From assembly GCF_965641715.1 (NCBI RefSeq), contig NZ_OZ282453.1: a DNA stretch of 64,000 bases. One strand, 5' to 3'. Source of the stretch: Escherichia coli (GTDB lineage: Bacteria > Pseudomonadota > Gammaproteobacteria > Enterobacterales > Enterobacteriaceae). The notes beneath the pieces are model-generated. The model was not told the origin of the DNA. It made no database searches and saw nothing but the letters and a program-made list of their open reading frames with translations. The position numbers were made by a program, and so were the translations under genes. The number at the start of each line of letters is the position of its first letter. The stretch's first letter is position 1. This document shows, piece by piece, positions 5,092 to 55,289 of this stretch.

Positions 5092-5251
5092 AGTAAGTAC
5101 AAAACCTATTCGTTGTATGACAAATGTCACAATTCGATCATGGATAAATCGGGGCAAAAATGCAATGTTGCAGCACTATTTATCTCATATTATTTGAGGG
5201 TAATAACCTCACATTATCCCTGAATTAAAAGTGGTAATAATAAAACATTAT

Positions 5252-9595: not shown

Positions 9596-10435
9596 ATGAA
9601 AGACAATCCGCTGATCTCAATCTATATGCCAACCTGGAACCGCCAACAACTGGCGATTCGGGCGATAAAATCGGTCCTGCGCCAGGACTACAGCAACTGG
9701 GAGATGATCATCGTGGATGATTGCTCCACCTCCTGGGAACAACTGCAACAGTACGTCAGCGCCCTCAACGATCCGCGTATCACCTACATTCACAACGACA
9801 TTAACAGCGGGGCGTGCGCGGTACGTAACCAGGCGATTATGCTGGCGCAAGGGGAATATATCACCGGGATTGATGACGATGACGAATGGACACCCAACCG
9901 TCTGAGCGTCTTCCTCGCCCATAAACAGCAACTGGTCACTCACGCCTTTTTGTACGCTAACGACTACGTATGCCAGGGAGAAGTTTATTCCCAACCGGCA
10001 AGCTTACCACTGTATCCCAAATCGCCGTACTCACGCCGCCTGTTCTATAAACGCAATATCATTGGCAATCAGGTCTTTACCTGGGCATGGCGTTTCAAAG
10101 AGTGTTTGTTCGATACCGAACTGAAAGCGGCACAGGATTACGACATCTTCCTGCGGATGGTGGTGGAGTATGGCGAACCGTGGAAAGTGGAAGAGGCGAC
10201 GCAGATCCTGCATATCAATCACGGCGAAATGCAGATCACCTCGTCACCGAAAAAATTCTCCGGATACTTCCACTTTTACCGCAAGCACAAAGACAAATTT
10301 GACCGCGCCAGCAAAAAATATCAGCTGTTTACCCTCTACCAGATCCGCAATAAACGCATGACCTGGCGCACTTTGCTGACGCTGCTGTCGGTGCGTAACG
10401 GCAAACGTCTGGCTGATGGTATTCGGGGGCGCTAA
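9596..10435 (+). CDS. wcaA: Colanic acid glycosyltransferase (GT2)
   Basis: 279 aa, position and length match WcaA; GT2 N-terminal motif (IYMPTWNR...DDCS). Confidence 0.9.
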   Translation: MKDNPLISIYMPTWNRQQLAIRAIKSVLRQDYSNWEMIIVDDCSTSWEQLQQYVSALNDPRITYIHNDINSGACAVRNQAIMLAQGEYITGIDDDDEWTPNRLSVFLAHKQQLVTHAFLYANDYVCQGEVYSQPASLPLYPKSPYSRRLFYKRNIIGNQVFTWAWRFKECLFDTELKAAQDYDIFLRMVVEYGEPWKVEEATQILHINHGEMQITSSPKKFSGYFHFYRKHKDKFDRASKKYQLFTLYQIRNKRMTWRTLLTLLSVRNGKRLADGIRGR

Positions 10436-10437
10436 AG

Positions 10438-10926
10438 ATGCTGGAAGATCTGCGCGCCAACAGCTGGAGTTTACGCCCGTGCTGCATGGTTCTTGCCTAT
10501 CGTGTTGCTCATTTTTGTTCGGTGTGGCGCAAAAAGAACGTCCTCAACAATCTGTGGGCGGCCCCGCTGCTGGTGCTGTATCGCATTATCACCGAATGCT
10601 TTTTCGGTTATGAAATCCAGGCAGCCGCAACCATTGGCCGCCGCTTTACTATCCATCACGGTTACGCCGTAGTGATCAATAAAAACGTGGTTGCGGGGGA
10701 TGATTTCACCATTCGCCACGGCGTCACTATCGGCAATCGGGGTGCCGATAACATGGCATGTCCACACATTGGCAACGGCGTCGAACTCGGTGCCAACGTC
10801 ATTATTCTTGGTGATATCACGCTTGGTAACAACGTCACCGTGGGCGCGGGCAGCGTGGTGCTCGACTCTGTCCCGGACAACGCGCTGGTGGTGGGAGAAA
10901 AAGCGCGAGTGAAGGTAATCAAATGA
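10438..10926 (+). CDS. wcaB: Colanic acid acetyltransferase (hexapeptide-repeat family)
   Basis: 162 aa, left-handed beta-helix hexapeptide repeats (IGNRGADN..IGNGVELGANVIILGDITLGNNVTVGAGSVV). Confidence 0.9.
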   Translation: MLEDLRANSWSLRPCCMVLAYRVAHFCSVWRKKNVLNNLWAAPLLVLYRIITECFFGYEIQAAATIGRRFTIHHGYAVVINKNVVAGDDFTIRHGVTIGNRGADNMACPHIGNGVELGANVIILGDITLGNNVTVGAGSVVLDSVPDNALVVGEKARVKVIK

Positions 10927-12140
10927 ATATTTTGCAATTTAATGTGCGACTGGCGGAAGGCGGGGCAGCAGGTGTGGCGTTAGATCTCCACCAGCGTGCG
11001 CTGCAACAGGGGCTGGCGTCACATTTTGTCTACGGCTACGGCAAAGGCGGCAAAGAGAGCGTCAGCCATCAAAACTATCCGCAGGTCATCAAACATACGC
11101 CGCGGATGACTGCGATGGCGAACATTGCCCTGTTTCGTCTGTTTAATCGCGATCTGTTCGGCAATTTCAATGAGTTATATCGCACCATTACTCGCACACC
11201 GGGTCCGGTGGTCCTGCATTTTCATGTGCTGCACAGCTACTGGTTGAATCTTAAGAGCGTGGTGCGCTTTTGCGAAAAAGTGAAAAACCACAAACCGGAT
11301 GTCACTCTGGTCTGGACGCTGCACGACCACTGGAGCGTTACCGGGCGCTGCGCCTTTACCGACGGTTGTGAAGGCTGGAAAACGGGCTGCCAGAAATGCC
11401 CGACCTTAAATAATTATCCGCCGGTGAAGATTGATCGGGCGCACCAGCTGGTGGCGGGCAAACGCCAGTTATTCCTTGAGATGCTGGTGCTGGGCTGTCA
11501 GTTTATTTCCCCCAGCCAGCATGTGGCTGACGCTTTCAATAGCCTGTACGGTCCAGGGCGTTGCCGGATCATCAATAATGGCATTGATATGGCAACCGAA
11601 GCGATTCTGGCGGATTTGCCTCCGGTGCGCGAAACTCAGGGCAAGCCGAAAATCGCGGTGGTAGCGCATGACCTGCGTTACGACGGCAAAACTAACCAGC
11701 ACCTGGTGCGCGAGATGATGGCGCTGGACGACAAAATCGAACTGCATACCTTCGGTAAGTTCTCGCCGTTCACCGCTGGCAACGTGGTCAATCACGGCTT
11801 TGAAACCGACAAACGTAAGCTGATGAGCGCGCTCAATCAGATGGATGCGCTGGTATTCAGTTCTCGCGTCGATAACTACCCGCTGATTTTGTGTGAGGCG
11901 TTATCAATTGGCGTGCCGGTGATTGCCACCCATAGCGACGCGGCGCGTGAAGTGTTGCAAAAATCCGGCGGTAAAACCGTCAGCGAAGAAGAGGTGCTGC
12001 AACTGGTCCAGTTAAGCAAACCGGAAATCGCGCAGGCGATATTTGGTACCACGCTGGCTGAGTTCAGCCAACGCAGCCGCGCCGCCTACAGTGGACAACA
12101 GATGCTGGAGGAGTATGTCAACTTCTATCAGAATCTGTAG
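10923..12140 (+). CDS. wcaC: Colanic acid glycosyltransferase (GT4)
   Basis: 405 aa; start overlaps the wcaB stop (ATGA); synteny. Confidence 0.9.
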   Translation: MNILQFNVRLAEGGAAGVALDLHQRALQQGLASHFVYGYGKGGKESVSHQNYPQVIKHTPRMTAMANIALFRLFNRDLFGNFNELYRTITRTPGPVVLHFHVLHSYWLNLKSVVRFCEKVKNHKPDVTLVWTLHDHWSVTGRCAFTDGCEGWKTGCQKCPTLNNYPPVKIDRAHQLVAGKRQLFLEMLVLGCQFISPSQHVADAFNSLYGPGRCRIINNGIDMATEAILADLPPVRETQGKPKIAVVAHDLRYDGKTNQHLVREMMALDDKIELHTFGKFSPFTAGNVVNHGFETDKRKLMSALNQMDALVFSSRVDNYPLILCEALSIGVPVIATHSDAAREVLQKSGGKTVSEEEVLQLVQLSKPEIAQAIFGTTLAEFSQRSRAAYSGQQMLEEYVNFYQNL

Positions 12141-40784: not shown

Positions 40785-42185
40785 ATGATTCAACCTGTAA
40801 TTATTGCTGGGGGCGTTGGTTCTAGATTATGGCCGCTTTCTAGGGAACAGTACCCAAAACAATTTCTTACATTATTAAATGATAAGAGTTTACTTCAAAA
40901 TACATTATTACGACTCAAAGATCTGCATCATTTACCTCCCATAATCGTATGCAACCATGAGCATAGATTTTTAGTCGCTGAACAATTAAGGATGGAATCT
41001 ATTAATGTTGGTGGAATTATTTTAGAACCTAAAGGAAAAAATACAGCTCCAGCTGTTGCCCTTTCAGCCTTTTTTGTAAATAGATGTGAGATAAACTTAG
41101 AGAAGGATCCTGTCTTATTAGTGTTAGCTGCGGATCATGTTATTGATGATACGGATGGATTTTTAGCTGCAATAAATAGTGCTTTACCTCTTGCGCAGAA
41201 CGGTATGTTAGTGACTTTTGGTGTTGTTCCTACTCATCCTGAAACAGGATATGGATATATCCAGACTGGCAAGAAAATAATAGATAATTCATTTGAAATT
41301 ATTGATTTTAAAGAAAAGCCATCATTAGAAAAAGCGCAGGAATATTTAGATAGTAAAAACTATTTATGGAATAGTGGTATGTTTATGTTTCGTGCGTCTA
41401 CTTATTTAAATGAGTTGAAAAAATTCAGATCTGATATTTATGATGCTTGCTTTGATGCCATGAATTCCTCAAGTTTTGATTTTGATTTTGTTCATGTAAA
41501 TAAAGAAAATTTTTCATTGTGCTTATCTGAATCAATCGATTATGCTGTCATGGAGCAAACAGATAAAGGTGTTGTTGTCCCCATTGATATAGGATGGAGT
41601 GACATTGGTTCGTGGTCAGCTCTTTGGGATGTTTGTAGTAAAGATACTAATAATAATGTTATTAAAGGGGATGTCATAGATCATGATTCTCATAATTGTT
41701 TTATCATCGCTGAGACATCCTTAGTTACTACTATTGGTCTTAATAATCTTATTATTATTCAAAGCAATGATTCACTACTTATTGCTGACCGTCATTCTTC
41801 CCAAATGGTGAAGAATATAGTTGACGAACTCAAGGAAAAAGAACGTCATGAATATTATTTCCATTCGGAGGGATATCGGCCTTGGGGAAAATATAAAACA
41901 ATTGATACCGGGGAAAACTATCAAGTAAAACGAATTACTGTGAGGCCTGGAGGGAAACTATCAATGCAAATACATTATCATCGTGCTGAACATTGGGTTA
42001 TTGTCTCTGGTACAGCAAGAGTTATAGTTGATGGCAATACCAAATTGCTTAGAGAGAATGAATCTATATACATTCCTCAGGGATGTATTCATAGTTTAGA
42101 AAATCCAGGAGAAACTCCTCTCGATATAATAGAGGTTCGCTCAGGTGTTTATCTTGAAGACGATGATGTTGTGCGCTTTCAATAG
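40785..42185 (+). CDS. manC: Mannose-1-phosphate guanylyltransferase (O-antigen copy)
   Basis: 466 aa; same domain order as cpsB ([14 protein letters not shown]...cupin) but AT-rich and divergent at DNA level. Confidence 0.9.
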
Positions 42186-42232
42186 TAGCTCTATTTTTTT
42201 TACAACAAACGTTTTGTTATAAAAATTATCAT

Positions 42233-43603
42233 ATGAAACAATTAACCTGCTTTAAAGCCTATGATATTCGCGGGAAATTAGGCGAAGAACTGAATGAAGA
42301 TATCGCCTGGCGTATTGGGCGCGCCTATGGCGAATTTCTCAAACCGAAAACCATTGTGTTAGGCGGTGATGTCCGCCTTACCAGCGAAACCTTAAAACTG
42401 GCGCTGGCGAAAGGTTTACAGGATGCGGGAGTCGACGTGCTGGATATTGGTATGTCCGGCACTGAAGAGATCTATTTCGCCACGTTCCATCTCGGCGTGG
42501 ATGGCGGCATTGAAGTTACCGCCAGCCATAATCCGATGGATTATAACGGCATGAAGCTGGTGCGCGAGGGGGCTCGCCCGATCAGCGGTGATACCGGACT
42601 GCGCGACGTCCAGCGTCTGGCAGAAGCCAACGACTTTCCTCCCGTCGATGAAACCAAACGCGGTCGCTATCAGCAAATCAATCTGCGTGACGCTTACGTT
42701 GATCACCTGTTCGGTTATATCAATGTCAAAAACCTCACGCCGCTCAAGCTGGTGATCAACTCCGGGAACGGCGCAGCGGGTCCGGTGGTGGACGCCATCG
42801 AAGCCCGCTTTAAAGCCCTCGGCGCACCTGTGGAATTAATCAAAGTACACAACATGCCGGATGGCAATTTCCCCAACGGTATTCCTAACCCGCTACTGCC
42901 GGAATGTCGCGACGATACTCGTAATGCGGTCATCAAACACGGCGCGGATATGGGCATTGCCTTTGATGGCGATTTTGACCGCTGCTTCCTGTTTGACGAA
43001 AAAGGGCAGTTTATTGAGGGCTACTACATTGTCGGCCTGTTGGCAGAAGCATTCCTCGAAAAAAATTCCGGCGCGAAGATCATCCACGATCCACGTCTCT
43101 CCTGGAACACCGTTGATGTGGTGACTGCCGCAGGCGGCACCCCGGTAATGTCGAAAACCGGACACGCCTTTATTAAAGAACGTATGCGCAAGGAAGACGC
43201 CATCTACGGTGGCGAAATGAGCGCCCACCATTACTTCCGTGATTTCGCTTACTGCGACAGCGGCATGATCCCGTGGCTGCTGGTCGCCGAACTGGTGTGC
43301 CTGAAAGGGAAAACGCTGGGCGAACTGGTACGCGACCGGATGGCAGCATTTCCGGCAAGCGGTGAGATCAACAGCAAACTGGCGGACCCCGTTGAGGCGA
43401 TTAACCGCGTGGAACAGCATTTTAGCCGTGAGGCTCTGGCGGTGGATCGCACCGATGGCATCAGCATGACCTTTGCCGACTGGCGCTTTAACCTGCGCAC
43501 CTCCAACACCGAACCGGTGGTGCGCCTGAATGTGGAATCGCGCGGTGATGTGCCGCTGATGGAAGAAAAAACAAAACTTATTCTTGAGTTACTGAGTAAG
43601 TAA
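42233..43603 (+). CDS. manB: Phosphomannomutase (O-antigen copy; mosaic with cpsG)
   Basis: 456 aa; codons 3 to about 444 are near-identical in DNA to cpsG (20109-21434), while the first two codons and the last 13 codons ([14 protein letters not shown]) are AT-rich and different. Confidence 0.95.
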
Positions 43604-43766
43604 TTCAGTAATTTCATATAAATGGGTTTTAAAAAACGGAAAAGATGAGATATCCGGTGTGGTATAGCCAAGGTAATGCTATTCAGTATCTCTATGAGTG
43701 AGTTAACATCTATACCACATTTAAGCCGCACACTTGGCGGTGACCACCCCCTGACAGGAGTAAACA

Positions 43767-45173
43767 ATGTCAAAGCAACAGATCGGCGTCGTCGGTATGG
43801 CAGTGATGGGGCGCAACCTTGCGCTCAACATCGAAAGCCGTGGTTATACCGTCTCTATTTTCAACCGTTCCCGTGAAAAGACGGAAGAAGTGATTGCCGA
43901 AAATCCAGGCAAGAAACTGGTTCCTTACTATACGGTGAAAGAGTTTGTTGAATCTCTGGAAACGCCTCGTCGCATCCTGTTAATGGTGAAAGCAGGTGCA
44001 GGCACGGATGCTGCTATTGATTCCCTCAAACCATATCTCGATAAAGGCGACATCATCATTGATGGTGGTAACACCTTCTTCCAGGACACCATTCGTCGTA
44101 ACCGTGAGCTTTCTGCTGAAGGCTTTAACTTCATTGGTACCGGTGTCTCCGGTGGAGAAGAAGGCGCGCTGAAAGGTCCTTCCATTATGCCTGGTGGGCA
44201 GAAAGAAGCCTATGAACTGGTTGCGCCGATCCTGACCAAAATCGCCGCAGTGGCTGAAGACGGTGAGCCATGCGTTACCTATATTGGTGCCGATGGTGCA
44301 GGTCACTATGTGAAGATGGTTCACAACGGTATCGAATACGGTGATATGCAACTGATTGCTGAAGCCTATTCTCTGCTTAAAGGTGGCCTGAACCTCACCA
44401 ACGAAGAACTGGCGCAGACCTTTACCGAATGGAATAACGGTGAACTGAGCAGCTACCTGATCGACATCACCAAAGATATCTTCACCAAAAAAGATGAAGA
44501 CGGTAACTACCTGGTTGATGTGATTCTGGATGAAGCAGCAAACAAAGGTACGGGTAAATGGACCAGCCAGAGTGCGCTGGATCTCGGTGAACCACTGTCG
44601 CTTATTACCGAGTCTGTGTTTGCACGTTATATCTCTTCTCTAAAAGATCAGCGCGTTGCCGCATCTAAAGTTCTCTCTGGTCCGCAAGCGCAGCCAGCTG
44701 GCGACAAGGCTGAGTTCATCGAAAAAGTTCGTCGTGCGCTGTATCTGGGCAAAATCGTTTCTTACGCCCAAGGCTTCTCTCAGCTGCGTGCTGCGTCTGA
44801 AGAGTACAACTGGGATCTGAACTACGGCGAAATCGCGAAGATTTTCCGTGCTGGCTGCATCATCCGTGCGCAGTTCCTGCAGAAAATCACTGATGCATAT
44901 GCCGAAAATCCGCAGATCGCTAACCTGCTGCTGGCTCCGTACTTTAAACAAATTGCCGATGATTACCAGCAGGCGCTGCGTGATGTCGTTGCTTATGCAG
45001 TACAGAACGGTATCCCGGTTCCGACCTTCGCCGCTGCGGTTGCCTATTATGACAGCTACCGCGCCGCTGTTCTGCCTGCGAACCTGATCCAGGCACAGCG
45101 TGACTATTTCGGTGCGCATACTTATAAGCGCATTGATAAGGAAGGTGTGTTCCATACTGAATGGCTGGATTAA
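43767..45173 (+). CDS. gnd: 6-phosphogluconate dehydrogenase, decarboxylating
   Basis: 468 aa; [21 protein letters not shown]; highly conserved Gnd. Confidence 0.95.
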
Positions 45174-45202
45174 TCTGATTTAAATCAATTAACCAACACA
45201 AG

Positions 45203-45230
45203 GCCCGGAGAAACCCTCCGGGCTTTTTTA
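45203..45230 (+). terminator. Rho-independent terminator downstream of gnd
   Basis: gcccggagaaaccctccgggc hairpin followed by tttttt. Confidence 0.7.
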
Positions 45231-45421
45231 TTATACAAAGCGGCAGGTTATGGCCTTTTTTTATAATTTATGATTAAAAAAGCGATATAATACAGAGCCG
45301 CACAGCAGGATCGCTGCCTTGACAGTTCATATACATCAGCGTTAAAAATCCCGCAGTAGATGAAGTTGTGGTGGTGGATTAATGACCACTCTAAATGTTT
45401 AACCGGAAGAAGTCAGAGCTA

Positions 45422-46588
45422 ATGAAAATAACAATTTCAGGAACAGGTTATGTTGGTCTTTCAAATGGTATTCTGATTGCGCAAAACCACGAAGTGGTTG
45501 CACTGGATATCGTTCAGGCCAAAGTGGACATGCTTAACAAGAAGCAGTCACCGATTGTTGATAAGGAGATTGAAGAGTATCTGGCGACTAAAGATCTCAA
45601 TTTCCGCGCTACGACAGATAAGTATGACGCGTATAAAAATGCCGATTACGTTATTATTGCCACACCTACCGATTATGATCCGAAAACGAATTATTTTAAT
45701 ACCTCAAGCGTGGAAGCGGTCATTCGCGATGTGACAGAAATTAATCCCAACGCGGTAATGATTATAAAATCAACTATCCCTGTTGGTTTTACAGAGTCCA
45801 TTAAAGAACGTTTTGGTATTGAAAATGTGATCTTTTCGCCTGAGTTTTTGCGTGAAGGTAAAGCACTTTATGATAACTTACACCCATCACGCATTGTGAT
45901 TGGCGAGCAGTCTGAACGCGCTGAACGTTTTGCTGCGTTATTACAGGAAGGCGCCATTAAGCAAGACATACCAACATTGTTTACTGACTCAACCGAAGCT
46001 GAGGCGATTAAACTTTTTGCCAACACTTATCTGGCTATGCGTGTAGCGTATTTCAATGAACTTGATAGTTATGCTGAAAGCCTGGGGCTTAATTCACGCC
46101 AGATTATTGAGGGCGTATGCCTTGATCCGCGTATCGGTAATCACTACAACAACCCGTCATTCGGTTATGGCGGTTATTGTCTGCCGAAAGATACCAAGCA
46201 GTTACTGGCAAATTACCAGTCTGTGCCGAATAACCTGATCTCGGCAATTGTTGACGCCAACCGCACGCGCAAAGATTTTATTGCCGATTCTATCCTTGCA
46301 CGTAAACCGAAAGTTGTTGGCGTCTATCGTCTGATTATGAAGAGTGGTTCGGACAATTTCCGTGCTTCCTCGATTCAGGGTATTATGAAGCGAATCAAGG
46401 CGAAAGGTGTGCCAGTAATCGTTTATGAGCCAGCGATGAAAGAGGACGATTTTTTCCGTTCGCGCGTGGTACGTGATCTGGATGCGTTCAAACAAGAAGC
46501 TGATGTTATTATTTCTAACCGTATGTCTGCCGATCTGGCTGATGTAGCAGATAAGGTTTATACGCGCGACTTGTTTGGCAATGATTAA
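45422..46588 (+). CDS. ugd: UDP-glucose 6-dehydrogenase
   Basis: 388 aa from [16 protein letters not shown]; the ORF-track start at 45395 is rejected; the C-terminal 30 codons differ from the K-12-like duplicate at 47836-47937. Confidence 0.95.
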
Positions 46589-46608
46589 TTATTTTGTTTC
46601 ATACTAAG

Positions 46609-46638
46609 AAAAGGCCCTAATAAATTAGGGCCTTTTCT
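46609..46638. terminator. Bidirectional rho-independent terminator between convergent ugd and gla
   Basis: aaaaggccctaataaattagggcctttt: perfect stem flanked by an A-run and a T-run. Confidence 0.7.
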
Positions 46639-46653
46639 TATGGTTTTATAAAA

Positions 46654-47658
46654 TCAAACTTTATAGAAGTTACGATACCATTCTACAAAGTTCTTTACCC
46701 CCTCTTTAACTGACGTTTCAGGTTTGAATCCTATTACGTCATACAGTGCTTTTGTATCAGCACTGGTTTCCAGTACATCACCGGGTTGGAGAGGCATCAT
46801 ATTTTTGTTGGCTTCAATACCCAGAGCCTCTTCTAAGGCATTGATATAGTCCATCAACTCCACAGGCGAACTATTACCAATGTTATAGACACGATATGGT
46901 GCTGAACTTGTTGCAGGAGAGCCTGTTTCAACAGCCCACTGTGGATCTTTTTCTGGAATAACATCCTGTAAGCGAATAATAGCTTCGGCAATATCATCAA
47001 TATAAGTAAAGTCACGCTTCATTTTGCCGAAGTTGTAAACATCAATGCTTTTACCTCCCAACATGGCTTTAGTGAATTTAAATAATGCCATATCCGGACG
47101 TCCCCATGGACCATAAACCGTAAAGAAACGCAGCCCTGTGGTCGGTAAGCCATACAAATGAGAATACGTATGGGCCATGAGTTCATTCGCTTTTTTAGTT
47201 GCTGCATAAAGCGAAACAGGATGATCTACAGAGTCATCTGTGGAGAAAGGCATCTTGCGGTTCATGCCATAAACAGAACTGGAGGAAGCGTAAAGTAGAT
47301 GCTGAACACTATTATGGCGACATCCTTCCAGTATGTTCAGGAATCCAATCAGGTTTGCATCTGCATATGCATTGGGATTTTCAAGGGAGTAACGTACACC
47401 GGCTTGCGCAGCGAGGTTTATTACGCGTTCGAACTGCTCGTCTGCAAACAGTGCCGCCATTTTCTCACGATCAGCCAGGTCAATTTTATAAAAACTGAAG
47501 TTGTCGTGCTTGAGTAAATCAAGTCGTGCTTGTTTGAGGTTGACATCGTAATAATCATTTAAGTTGTCAATGCCTACAACCTGATGACCAGCTGCAAGAA
47601 GCCGTTTACTTACATAGAAACCGATAAAGCCAGCAGCTCCCGTAACCAGAAATTTCAT
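46654..47658 (-). CDS. gla: UDP-glucuronate 4-epimerase (NAD-dependent SDR; Gla/WbnF/CapI-like)
   Basis: 334 aa; MKFLVTGAAGFIGFYVSKRLL...YASSSSVYG...YAATKK; closely resembles UDP-GlcA 4-epimerases from memory; minus strand, opposite to flanking ugd and wzz. Confidence 0.8.
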   Translation of the reverse strand: MKFLVTGAAGFIGFYVSKRLLAAGHQVVGIDNLNDYYDVNLKQARLDLLKHDNFSFYKIDLADREKMAALFADEQFERVINLAAQAGVRYSLENPNAYADANLIGFLNILEGCRHNSVQHLLYASSSSVYGMNRKMPFSTDDSVDHPVSLYAATKKANELMAHTYSHLYGLPTTGLRFFTVYGPWGRPDMALFKFTKAMLGGKSIDVYNFGKMKRDFTYIDDIAEAIIRLQDVIPEKDPQWAVETGSPATSSAPYRVYNIGNSSPVELMDYINALEEALGIEANKNMMPLQPGDVLETSADTKALYDVIGFKPETSVKEGVKNFVEWYRNFYKV

Positions 47659-47829
47659 TTATAATCCTCGCTCAGGCTAGAATATAGCCAATCTTCATCT
47701 GGCATAACTGAAAGTTAAATCATACCGTTAGACAAGAAAAAAAGATAATCGGTATCAGTTCTAAACCTGGCTGTTTTTTCTGGTAACGTGCTCATTTTAC
47801 GATCAAAGCTGTTCTAAGCTGACTATTAG

Positions 47830-47937
<108 letters not shown>

Positions 47938-48083
47938 CATCCTGTTATCAGGGCGATTTTCGCCCTGATTCTCTTATGTTCCATTTGTAATAATTCATTA
48001 TTTTTATCATTTATCCTATAGCATTCATGGCGATTATCGCTAAACTATGGCGACTTAAAATTATTTCGTCCGTTAGGGTAATG

Positions 48084-49064
48084 ATGAGAGTAGAAAATAA
48101 TAATGTTTCTGGGCAAAACCATGACCCGGAACAGATTGATTTGATTGATTTACTGGTGCAGTTGTGGCGTGGCAAGATGACAATTATCATCTCTGTCATT
48201 GTTGCTATTGCCCTGGCTATAGGGTATCTGGCCGTTGCCAAAGAAAAGTGGACTTCCACTGCTATCGTTACTCAACCTGATGTGGGGCAAATCGCTGGTT
48301 ATACCAACGCGATGAATGTGATTTACGGTCCGGCTGTACCGAAAGTCTCCGACATTCAGGCTTCACTTATCGGACGTTACAGCACTGCATTCTCAGCATT
48401 AGCGGAAACGCTGGATAACCAGGAAGAAGCAGAAAAGCTGACCATTGAGCCTACCGTTAAAAATCAGTCATTACCTTTAGCGGTGTCTTATGTTGGTGAA
48501 ACACCTGAAGGTGCTCAGAAGCAGCTGGCGAAGTATATCCAGCAAGTTGACGACCAGGTAAACGTAGAGCTGGAAAAAGACTTGAAAGACAACATCGCGC
48601 TGCGTATGAAAAACTTGCAGGACTCTTTAAGAACTCAGGAAGTAGTCGCGCAAGAGCAGAAAGATCTGCGTATCCGTCAGATTCAGGAAGCGTTGCAGTA
48701 TGCGAATCAGGCGCAGGTGACAAAACCGCAAATTCAACAGACTGGCGAAGATATCACGCAAGATACGTTGTTCCTTTTGGGGAGCGAAGCGCTGGAGTCG
48801 ATGATTAAGCACGAGGCGACCCGTCCGTTGGTGTTCTCACCAAACTACTATCAGACACGTCAAAACCTGCTGGATATCGAAAGCTTAAAAGTTGATGATC
48901 TTGATATTCATGCTTACCGCTATGTAATGAAACCGACGTTACCTATTCGTCGCGATAGCCCGAAAAAGGCAATTACCTTGATTCTGGCGGTGCTGCTGGG
49001 CGGCATGGTTGGCGCGGGGATTGTGCTGGGGCGTAATGCTCTGCGTAATTACAACGCGAAGTAA
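48084..49064 (+). CDS. wzzB: O-antigen chain-length determinant (polysaccharide co-polymerase 1)
   Basis: 326 aa from MRVENNNVSGQNHDPEQIDLIDLLVQLWRGK; TM1 near the N-terminus and TM2 near the C-terminus (ITLILAVLLGGMVGAGIVLG). Confidence 0.9.
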   Translation: MRVENNNVSGQNHDPEQIDLIDLLVQLWRGKMTIIISVIVAIALAIGYLAVAKEKWTSTAIVTQPDVGQIAGYTNAMNVIYGPAVPKVSDIQASLIGRYSTAFSALAETLDNQEEAEKLTIEPTVKNQSLPLAVSYVGETPEGAQKQLAKYIQQVDDQVNVELEKDLKDNIALRMKNLQDSLRTQEVVAQEQKDLRIRQIQEALQYANQAQVTKPQIQQTGEDITQDTLFLLGSEALESMIKHEATRPLVFSPNYYQTRQNLLDIESLKVDDLDIHAYRYVMKPTLPIRRDSPKKAITLILAVLLGGMVGAGIVLGRNALRNYNAK

Positions 49065-49084
49065 TCTTTTCGGTTTTAAAGAAA

Positions 49085-49120
49085 AAGGGCAGGGTGGTGA
49101 CACCTTGCCCGTTTTTTTTG
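49085..49120. terminator. Bidirectional terminator between convergent wzzB and hisI
   Basis: gggcagggtggtgacaccttgccc hairpin followed by tttttttt on plus strand and preceded by an A-rich run; a second hairpin cggatgcgacaacaacatcgcatccg at 49121-49148. Confidence 0.65.
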
Positions 49121-49160
49121 CCGGATGCGACAACAACATCGCATCCGTTTACCCCGCAAC

Positions 49161-49765
49161 TCACTGATGCCGTTTACGCAGGTTCTCAATCACCGTCGTT
49201 AAATCCAGATCCTGATCCTGCAACAACACCAGCAGGTGATACATCAAATCAGATGCCTCGTTGGTCAGTTCAAAGCGGTCATGTACCGTCGCTGCCAGTG
49301 CGGTTTCCACGCCTTCTTCGCCCACTTTCTGCGCAATGCGTTTGGTGCCGCTGGCATACAGTTTGGCGGTGTAGGAGGTTTCCGGGTCGGCAGATTTACG
49401 TTCGGCGAGCAGTTGTTCCAGTTGATAAAGGAACAGCCACTGGTGAGCGGTGTCGCCGAAGCAGCTGCTGGTGCCTTTGTGGCAGGTTGGGCCGATGGGA
49501 TTCGCCAGTACCAGTAACGTGTCGTTGTCGCAGTCCGGGGCAATACTCACCACATTGAGGAAATTGCCCGACGTTTCGCCTTTGGTCCACAGTCGCTGTT
49601 TAGTGCGGGAGAAAAAGGTGACTTTGCCGCTTTCGATGGTTTTGTCCAGAGCTTCCGGGTTCATATAGCCCAGCATTAACACTTCACCGGATACCGCGTG
49701 TTGCACAATCACCGGCATCAGTCCGTCGGTTTTTTCCCAGTCCAGTTCGCGGCGTTGTTGTTCTG

Positions 49766-49772
<7 letters not shown>
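49161..49772 (-). CDS. hisI: Bifunctional phosphoribosyl-AMP cyclohydrolase / phosphoribosyl-ATP pyrophosphatase
   Basis: 203 aa; conserved HisIE sequence; last gene of the his operon. Confidence 0.95.

Positions 49773-55289
<5,517 letters not shown>

Follow-up and report, generated by a model that had tools for sequence, protein, structure and literature searches.

The 64,000-nt stretch of Escherichia coli DNA analysed here (the window; contig NZ_OZ282453.1 of assembly GCF_965641715.1) covers the colanic acid, O-antigen and his region, and this work is concerned with its ugd gene and with the sequences that surround it between gnd and wzzB. The ugd of the window belongs to a divergent allele family, here called ugd*, and is followed by a convergent epimerase gene, gla, and by the 3' remnant of a second ugd of the type found in E. 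coli K-12. What has been exchanged extends beyond ugd to the whole of 45184-47830, a block made up of the gnd-ugd spacer, ugd, a bidirectional terminator, gla and the region upstream of gla. The features of the locus, in window positions, are the following.

43767-45173, plus strand: gnd (6-phosphogluconate dehydrogenase), ordinary E. coli allele (NF006765, 774 bits).
45184-45421, plus strand: window-type gnd-ugd intergenic region, left edge of the haplotype, placed by the loss of identity to K-12.
45200-45232, plus strand: predicted intrinsic terminator of gnd, a stem at 45200-45226 and then a T-run.
45422-46588, plus strand: an intact ugd (product of 388 aa) from the divergent ugd* family of alleles (NF011631, equivalog).
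45819-45827, plus strand: breakpoint common to the chimeric ugd alleles of other E. coli, placed by informative sites.
46605-46640, both strands: predicted bidirectional intrinsic terminator of ugd and gla, with a 16-bp stem.
46654-47658, minus strand: gla (uge-like), by homology a predicted UDP (uridine diphosphate)-glucuronate 4-epimerase of 334 aa, an epimerase of SDR (short-chain dehydrogenase/reductase) type.
47659-47830, minus strand: gla upstream region, with a block conserved in Citrobacter and Kluyvera; its end is the right edge of the imported block.
47831-47937, plus strand: orphan 3' stub of a K-12-type ugd, its last 34 codons and stop, placed by alignment.
47947-47969, plus strand: K-12-type ugd terminator hairpin kept behind the stub, from folding and alignment to K-12.
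48084-49064, plus strand: wzzB, the right-hand flank (NF012015, 600 bits, from residue 20 of the open reading frame).

The window ugd is a complete gene, with a product that matches NF011631 over its full length (798.3 bits, cutoff 757, residues 1-388 of 388) and a frame with one stop, at its end. Window genes were compared with 5,426 complete E. coli genomes, ugd being found in 5403 of them. Of 5443 records, 4499 had a ugd 60-80% identical to that of the window, 667 had one in the 80-90% range and 277 one of at least 90%; the first class, which makes up about 83% of the ugd-bearing records, includes K-12, B and O157. Against K-12 the window gene is 75.2% identical in nucleotides and 84% in amino acids, with saturated synonymous sites (proportion of synonymous differences, pS, 0.78) and 0.106 nonsynonymous substitutions per site (dN), a value that is smaller when the window protein is compared with those of Citrobacter (0.048-0.055) or Enterobacter (up to 0.059). 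The window gnd lies at 95-99% identity in 3964 of 5422 records and at 95.6% to K-12, where the protein is 99.8% identical (dN 0.001), and it too has an 80-90% class (815 records). The his genes are 95-98% identical to the sampled K-12, O157 and gla-positive strains, and 95.6-98.3% to K-12. Along the sequence, sliding identity to K-12 stays at ~0.95 through the end of gnd and is 0.4-0.6 from ~10 nt past its stop, the drop being located at 45167-45215.

The gene trees are in agreement with this pattern. In neighbour-joining trees of gnd and hisIE-B the window sits tightly with K-12 and O157 (96% identity in gnd, 97% in hisIE-B), and in the ugd tree it stands beside Citrobacter (80%), apart from K-12 and O157 (75%). 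An earlier reading of the window's letters (the sequence-only reading) had proposed that ugd belongs with the recombining flank of the O-antigen cluster and not with stable core sequence, and had suggested comparing its phylogeny with those of gnd and his. On ~19 sequences the phylogenies are incongruent, and ugd is 75% identical to K-12 vs 96% for gnd and 97% for his. Nor is GC (guanine plus cytosine) content uniform over the gnd-ugd interval, since it steps from ~50% to ~43% at the boundary. With both this step and an incongruent ugd tree the proposal stands, and a place for the window ugd in the recombining flank is strongly supported by the identities and the tree.

The proposal had also leaned on base composition. 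The GC content of ugd is 43.0% vs 50.1% for gnd, the O-unit genes being at 26-35% and the his genes at 52-54%, so ugd is indeed compositionally intermediate and more AT-rich than gnd. The K-12 ugd, however, has a GC content of 43.8% and a similar GC at third codon positions (GC3), it matches the window gene in length and lies behind gnd at an equal spacing of 248 nt, and across alleles and genera the GC of ugd varies from 42% to 51%. Since the K-12 gene has the same GC, low GC is a trait of ugd generally: the observation was correct, its diagnostic value was not, and composition as a mark of a foreign ugd was ruled out. As judged from sequence, the decisive evidence for a recombining flank is the divergence of ugd and not its composition.

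The two edges of the block differ in kind. The left one lies ~10 nt past the gnd stop, at the conserved gnd 3' end, and the right one lies inside the former resident ugd, at the 107-nt stump of a K-12-type gene. This stub (47831-47937) is 91.6% identical to the corresponding 3' end of K-12, 94.4% to that of O157 and 99.1% to that of strain B379, vs 73.8% to the 3' end of the window's own ugd, which bears out the earlier remark that the window gene and the downstream orphan copy are unlike. Its translation reproduces exactly the last 34 residues of K-12 Ugd, and behind it the K-12-type ugd terminator (47947-47969; -19.5 kcal/mol, z = -5.3), which aligns with that of K-12, and the wzzB leader follow. 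In the gla upstream region (47659-47830) one stretch, ATCATACCG..AGAC..AAAAAAG.TAAT, is conserved in Citrobacter and Kluyvera as well. No stub was found in the gla-wzz spacers of Citrobacter, Enterobacter and Kluyvera, which makes the stub a feature specific to E. coli.

Of the 5,426 genomes, 276 have the ugd-gla-stub block in full, and the window gla allele occurs in 278 records, vs 277 for ugd at 90% or more. The stub was found at the same junction in 10 of 10 gla-positive loci that were read, in all of which it is annotated by PGAP (the NCBI Prokaryotic Genome Annotation Pipeline) as a partial pseudogene, with minor junction variants: a 17-bp deletion in the O167 and O158 strains, and 60 divergent bp to the left of the stub in YSP8-1 and GF47. 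Carriers among the sampled strains include O113, O139, O158, O167 (two strains), the LL004 type, the window type and further clusters, and between these strains the identity of the his alleles is 96-97%. In two of these strains, YSP8-1 (locus record L001, 12661-21167) and GF47 (L087, 11429-21160), the gnd-ugd-gla-stub block is accompanied by a complete O8-family ABC-transporter O-antigen cluster that lies between wzzB and his, and YSP8-1 additionally has the window's galF-gnd O-unit cluster. The galF-gnd cluster of these strains may specify a second polysaccharide (K antigen) instead of the O-antigen.

Recombination within ugd itself is recorded in the 80-90% class. Strains B379 and EC93 have chimeric ugd genes without gla, of window type over nt 1-398 (128 of 138 informative sites in B379, 125 of 138 in EC93) and of K-12 type over nt 406-1167 (121 of 157 and 125 of 157, respectively). 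The breakpoint is identical in both, at ugd nt 398-406, that is, window 45819-45827, and the chimeric protein WP_000704798.1 is found in these two unrelated strains (L091 and L092, ugd at 10001-11167 in each). Genomes with gla and genomes with a chimeric ugd have the same gnd-ugd intergenic region, and this spacer plus the 5' part of ugd occurs at 95% identity or more in 944 records (~17% of genomes), a count that 277 full carriers and ~667 chimeras fit.

Further haplotypes are present at the same place in other E. coli. In an O111:H8 strain (L088, 7171-17277) identity to other E. coli is no more than 82-88% over the segment that runs from gnd to hisC, Citrobacter werkmanii is matched at 91% by gnd and at 90% by hisIE-B, and no ugd stub is found; the block looks like a large intergeneric import, to judge from these identities. 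The O100 strain 23CRST004 (L089, 5716-13700) has a gnd 91% and a ugd 87% identical to those of Enterobacter cloacae, a gla bordered by IS4 (insertion sequence 4) and, at its other end, by IS600/IS30 remnants, foreign hisIE and hisF (81-85%) and ordinary genes from hisH to hisD. In ST167 (L090, 9828-12343) and W170 (L093, 10001-12367) the order is gnd-rmlBADC-ugd-gla, with gla co-directional with ugd, an arrangement called Klebsiella-like from gene order alone. In both, an IS1-disrupted O8 wzt follows. A partial ugd stub is annotated by PGAP after gla in ST167, which makes a second, independent stump in E. coli; none is annotated in W170. HeN100 (L095, 6784-11829) represents another deep haplotype, with identities to the window of 79% in gnd and 73% in ugd; between these two genes stand gtrA and a GT2 gene, a PmrA box is present upstream of ugd, and wzzB is lacking, so that ugd abuts hisIE.

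Two strong terminators had been noted in the window. The one behind gnd, previously placed at 45203-45230, is essentially right: the stem spans 45200-45226 (11 pairs, 7 of them G-C), the T-run extends to 45232, and the folding energy is -20.4 kcal/mol (z = -3.8), with 0 of 200 shuffles folding equally well. It has the GCCCGG/CCGGGC stem core and the T-run in common with K-12, and a different loop. The second, reported at 46609-46638 as a perfect bidirectional hairpin, is present at 46605-46640 between ugd and the convergent gla, as a perfect 16-bp stem with a 4-nt loop (-26.1 kcal/mol, z = -6.5 on the plus strand; -26.9 kcal/mol, z = -6.0 on the minus strand). Its arms each end in TTTTCTT, and because of these T-rich ends it reads as a terminator on both strands, a reading further supported by the fact that O111, two Citrobacter, two Enterobacter and Kluyvera all have, between ugd and gla, a hairpin of their own made of an A-run, a GC stem and a T-run, with differing sequence. 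Terminator-like sites number 17 in 42000-50000 vs 8.6 +/- 3.7 in shuffles; the gnd site tops this list and the ugd/gla stem is the longest in it. Both hairpins are predicted from sequence to act as intrinsic terminators.

Start signals are less evident. The window spacer contains TTGACA at 45319-45324, conserved with K-12, and a -10-like TAAAAAT at 45343-45349. Scanning of the gnd-ugd and gla upstream spacers for the sigma-70 consensus gave no match at threshold, and the TTGACA is paired with a weak -10, so that the ugd promoter is a putative one. An Rfam scan of 43500-49300 at E <= 1 returned sub-threshold chance matches only, with no known RNA element in the spacers. The fold of 45235-45380 is no better than that of shuffles (z = -0.27), and no structured leader is therefore indicated.

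A regulatory difference between the spacer types was found in the PmrA/BasR box, searched for with the published PmrA half-site (PMC3973317). The K-12-, O157- and HeN100-type spacers have a perfect box, CTTAAT-N5-CTTAAT, 160 nt upstream of the ugd ATG. No box within 2 mismatches was found in the window-type spacer (45174-45421; the corresponding region of another locus, L002, is 9753-10000), and it is also absent from the spacers of O111, O100, C. werkmanii and both Enterobacter, those of Citrobacter sp. FP75 and Kluyvera having matches with 2 mismatches only. As ugd also feeds the aminoarabinose modification of lipid A, the promoter swap and the loss of the box could change inducible polymyxin tolerance and the BasRS control of UDP-glucuronate (UDP-GlcA) in the ~17% of strains with this spacer.

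The function of gla was approached by homology. The product of 46654-47658 is 80.8% identical over its full 334 aa to PDB 5u4q (E = 6e-190), which we take to be a K. pneumoniae protein and which was deposited under a generic name, so that the match is by itself no proof of family membership. Among verified members of the family, the closest was the UDP-GlcA 4-epimerase of Bacillus cereus (UGAepi, PDB 6zl6), matched at E = 1e-42, and the equivalents of Tyr149, Lys153, Thr178 and Arg185 are kept, with Thr126 replaced by Ser; Tyr149 and Lys153 form the catalytic Tyr-x3-Lys, and Thr178 and Arg185 are ligands of the substrate carboxylate. For Tyr149 a catalytic role in UGAepi has been described (PMC7984243). 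No NCBIfam model matched at cutoff, GalE scoring 145 bits against a cutoff of 262. The protein is thus predicted to be a UDP-glucuronate 4-epimerase (Gla/Uge) of the extended SDR type. Outside E. coli, the order gnd, ugd, convergent gla, wzz, hisIE was found in five genomes among 100,044 species representatives, namely Enterobacter cloacae, E. asburiae, Citrobacter sp., C. werkmanii and Kluyvera (this last without a wzz match). Their ugd is 76-80% and their gla 73-78% identical in nucleotides to the window, and none has a stub. An opposite-strand glaKP/uge for the synthesis of UDP-galacturonate (UDP-GalA) is placed after ugd in K. pneumoniae by the summary in PMC3101168.

The carriers give a possible use for such an enzyme. 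In LL004 the O-unit contains D-galacturonic acid (D-GalA), as shown chemically (PMC8657804), and the same paper names the 334-aa convergent epimerase between ugd and wzz (Table 3, orf11) gne, with the remark that gla "always maps elsewhere". The gne label is probably wrong, since homology suggests gla, and an epimerase of this kind would account for the GalA of the LL004 O-antigen. O-cluster proteins of strains ECC-1470 and 2014C-4587 match the LL004 table (WP_000856120 and WP_001285383). GalA is presumably a constituent of the O113 and O167 antigens as well, and it is assumed, partly on indirect grounds, for O139 and O158. The O167 O-antigen has an alanine amide, and its cluster includes an ATP-grasp amidoligase. 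In O111, which has its own Citrobacter-like ugd-gla haplotype, gla is a pseudogene with an internal stop. Overall gla is present in ~5% of E. coli genomes as the window allele and in ~5% as other alleles. The cassette is best read, given these homologies and carriers, as a putative UDP-GalA supply module for GalA-containing O-antigens.

How the locus reached its present form can be described as follows. We consider it likely that 45184-47830 is an alternative gnd-wzz haplotype, a two-gene cassette that was placed on a chromosome with K-12-type ugd and was then spread by recombination. The cassette would have brought its own promoter region and a common bidirectional terminator, with ugd leading to UDP-glucuronate and the convergent gla to UDP-galacturonate. 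The left join would be homologous, through one crossover in or at the conserved gnd 3' end; the right one would be non-homologous, inside the resident ugd ~105 nt before its stop, where no homology is visible, and what it left behind would be the 107-nt stub together with the terminator of the old ugd and the former upstream region of wzzB. Placement of the cassette probably happened once, because all examined carriers have the same stub. Later transfers of the haplotype between E. coli lineages would have come about by homologous recombination, in company with O-antigen clusters and above all with those whose repeat units contain GalA, and crossovers within ugd would have given the chimera that is of window type to nt 398 and of K-12 type past nt 406. 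In 11 carriers the number of synonymous substitutions per site (dS) averages 0.107 in ugd and 0.062 in gla, similar to the 0.06-0.19 of his, and all copies are intact; within the haplotype the mean dN of ugd is 0.002 vs a mean dS of 0.107, a sign of purifying selection. The haplotype thus has the look of long residence in the E. coli gene pool and not of a recent import.

Other histories were weighed against the same data. It is unlikely, though worth considering, that ugd-gla is the ancestral Escherichia state, that the K-12-type ugd without gla is a later majority replacement and that the window kept or regained the old arrangement. The order gnd-ugd, convergent gla, wzz, his is native in the five other genomes and in Klebsiella, the K-12-type Ugd is an outlier (71-75% in nucleotides to every other genus) with the window Ugd closer to those genera than to K-12, and the dS within the haplotype is as large as the his diversity of E. 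coli. Yet the stub is 92-99% identical to the 3' ends of K-type ugd, with the terminator and the wzzB leader of the K type behind it, and therefore the window arrangement was assembled on a chromosome that already had a K-type ugd; moreover, no stub-free copy of the window allele was seen among the 10 carriers read. We regard as improbable a recent acquisition from Klebsiella, Citrobacter, Enterobacter or another genus, after the manner of the known gnd transfers. Such events do seem to happen here, given the 90-91% identity of O111 to C. werkmanii from gnd through hisB, the 87% (ugd) and 91% (gnd) of O100 to Enterobacter and the gnd-rml-ugd-gla arrangement of ST167, taken as Klebsiella-derived from gene order only. 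No species representative, however, exceeds 80% (ugd) or 78% (gla) to the window cassette, and a dS of ~0.06-0.11, up to 0.24, over at least 6 O-types and different his backgrounds points to long residence in E. coli.

Insertion of a mobile element (transposon or island) into ugd would explain an orphan gene fragment at one edge of the block, and the O100 gla allele is flanked by IS4, IS600 and IS30, but in 45100-48100 there is neither a transposase or integrase nor any terminal inverted repeat or target duplication, the sole long direct repeat is that of the ugd 3' end and the stub (76%), and the left edge lies at a conserved gene end as homologous exchange predicts, which leaves this explanation with very little probability. 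As to the replicon (positions were not compared), block matches are chromosomal at 5102 of 5105 places. Almost no weight is given to an ordinary, vertically inherited core ugd with incidental low GC and terminators. It would fit the near-universal presence of the gene (5403/5426 genomes) and the GC, length and spacer that K-12 has in common with the window (43.8%, same length, 248 nt), and it is refuted by an identity of 75% in nucleotides and 84% in amino acids vs 96-97% in the flanks, by the discrete allele classes, by the chimeras and by the orphan stub.

The preferred reading, a cassette placed on a K-12-type chromosome, also has points against it. The search with Gla for a donor among the species representatives found nothing closer than 87% in amino acids (78% in nucleotides), the best non-E. 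coli matches being 76-80% (ugd) and 73-78% (gla) in nucleotides, and since no donor was found "import" may really mean an old polymorphism. The neighbour-joining trees comprise ~19 hand-picked sequences with saturated synonymous sites, the incongruence being that of this small sample. The number of chimeras, 667 (~12% of genomes), is drawn from an identity band of which two members were inspected, the link to GalA rests on a handful of serogroups, and the functions of terminators and promoter are predictions. It can be put forward, tentatively at most, that two ancient versions of the ugd locus, distinct in function, have long been kept side by side in E. coli as a polymorphism: a majority K-12 type with the PmrA/BasR box, for on-demand UDP-GlcA towards lipid A aminoarabinose and colanic acid, and a minority type without the box (~17% for the promoter and 5' part, 5% with gla), for a steady supply of UDP-GlcA and UDP-GalA to GalA O-antigens. 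If this were true, O-antigen switching through recombination would silently rewire the regulation of a precursor pathway of polymyxin resistance.

The flanks of the block show polymorphism of their own. To the right, wzzB is 87.7% identical in nucleotides to K-12 (dS 0.59, 92.9% in amino acids) and 98.7% to the O139 carrier, and the recombining flank therefore reaches through wzzB, beyond which hisIE lies at 49161-49772 on the minus strand. To the left of gnd, manC (40785-42185) and manB (42233-43603), both on the plus strand, are separated by a sharp step in GC over 40785-43603, from 34.6% (GC3 23%) in manC to 53.9% (GC3 62%) in manB, and manB scores as a colanic-acid-type CpsG (NF011943, 1044 bits). 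The step suggests a recombination junction at which an O-cluster manC was joined to a cpsG-like manB.

These results have some practical consequences. The E. coli O-antigen locus is commonly described with ugd as a "housekeeping" anchor (e.g., Iguchi 2015, PMC4379981), a status against which the window ugd speaks, and primers, schemes of the multilocus sequence typing (MLST) kind and locus-extraction tools that assume a conserved ugd would mis-handle ~17% of genomes. The cassette would moreover explain the source of UDP-GalA for GalA-containing E. coli O-antigens. The ugd allele split, the stub, the linkage with gla and the chimeric breakpoint have no description in the searchable literature, subscription journals not being covered.

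The surroundings of rfb-gnd have since the 1990s been recognised as a place of recombination hot-spots, hitch-hiking and intergeneric import, and intergeneric transfer and mosaicism of gnd beside rfb in E. coli and Salmonella were reportedly described by Nelson and Selander in 1994 and by Bisercic, Feutrier and Reeves in 1991. The window resembles those cases in its neighbourhood, in a divergence far above that of the core, in incongruent trees and in mosaic alleles that arise by hitch-hiking with O-antigen switches. It differs from them in that ugd is affected, at 75% nucleotide identity and with saturated dS vs 96% for its own gnd, and in that the unit has an extra gene, gla, one non-homologous junction and a gene stub. 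The ugd/glaKP (uge) pair at the end of the K. pneumoniae cps locus (Regue 2004; Frirdich and Whitfield 2005, as summarised in PMC3101168) is alike in having an opposite-strand UDP-galacturonate 4-epimerase after ugd, for a route from UDP-glucose through UDP-GlcA to UDP-GalA. The Klebsiella gene, however, serves the lipopolysaccharide core and is present in every strain, whereas the E. coli gla occurs in ~5% of genomes as the window allele, stands on a ugd stub and is apparently tied to particular O-antigens.

The regulation of the window-type ugd can be placed beside two described promoters. The Salmonella ugd (pmrE) promoter is under PmrA, PhoP and RcsB in the account of Mouslim and Groisman (2003) as cited in PMC2919465, and the K-12-, O157- and HeN100-type spacers, with their perfect PmrA box, are like it, while the window-type spacer is not; this last is closer to the Klebsiella manC-manB-ugd, upstream of which no PmrA box was found (PMC2919465). 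A survey by Holt et al. (2020, PMC7305143) also reported that it is easier for galF, gnd and ugd to pass from one locus family to another than from one species to another, with which the spread of one ugd haplotype over several O-types agrees; that survey does not include the E. coli ugd dimorphism, the linkage with gla, the stub or the chimeric allele. Compared with these systems, the window cassette is a well-resolved specific case of the known recombination and import at rfb-gnd, clear but unsurprising.

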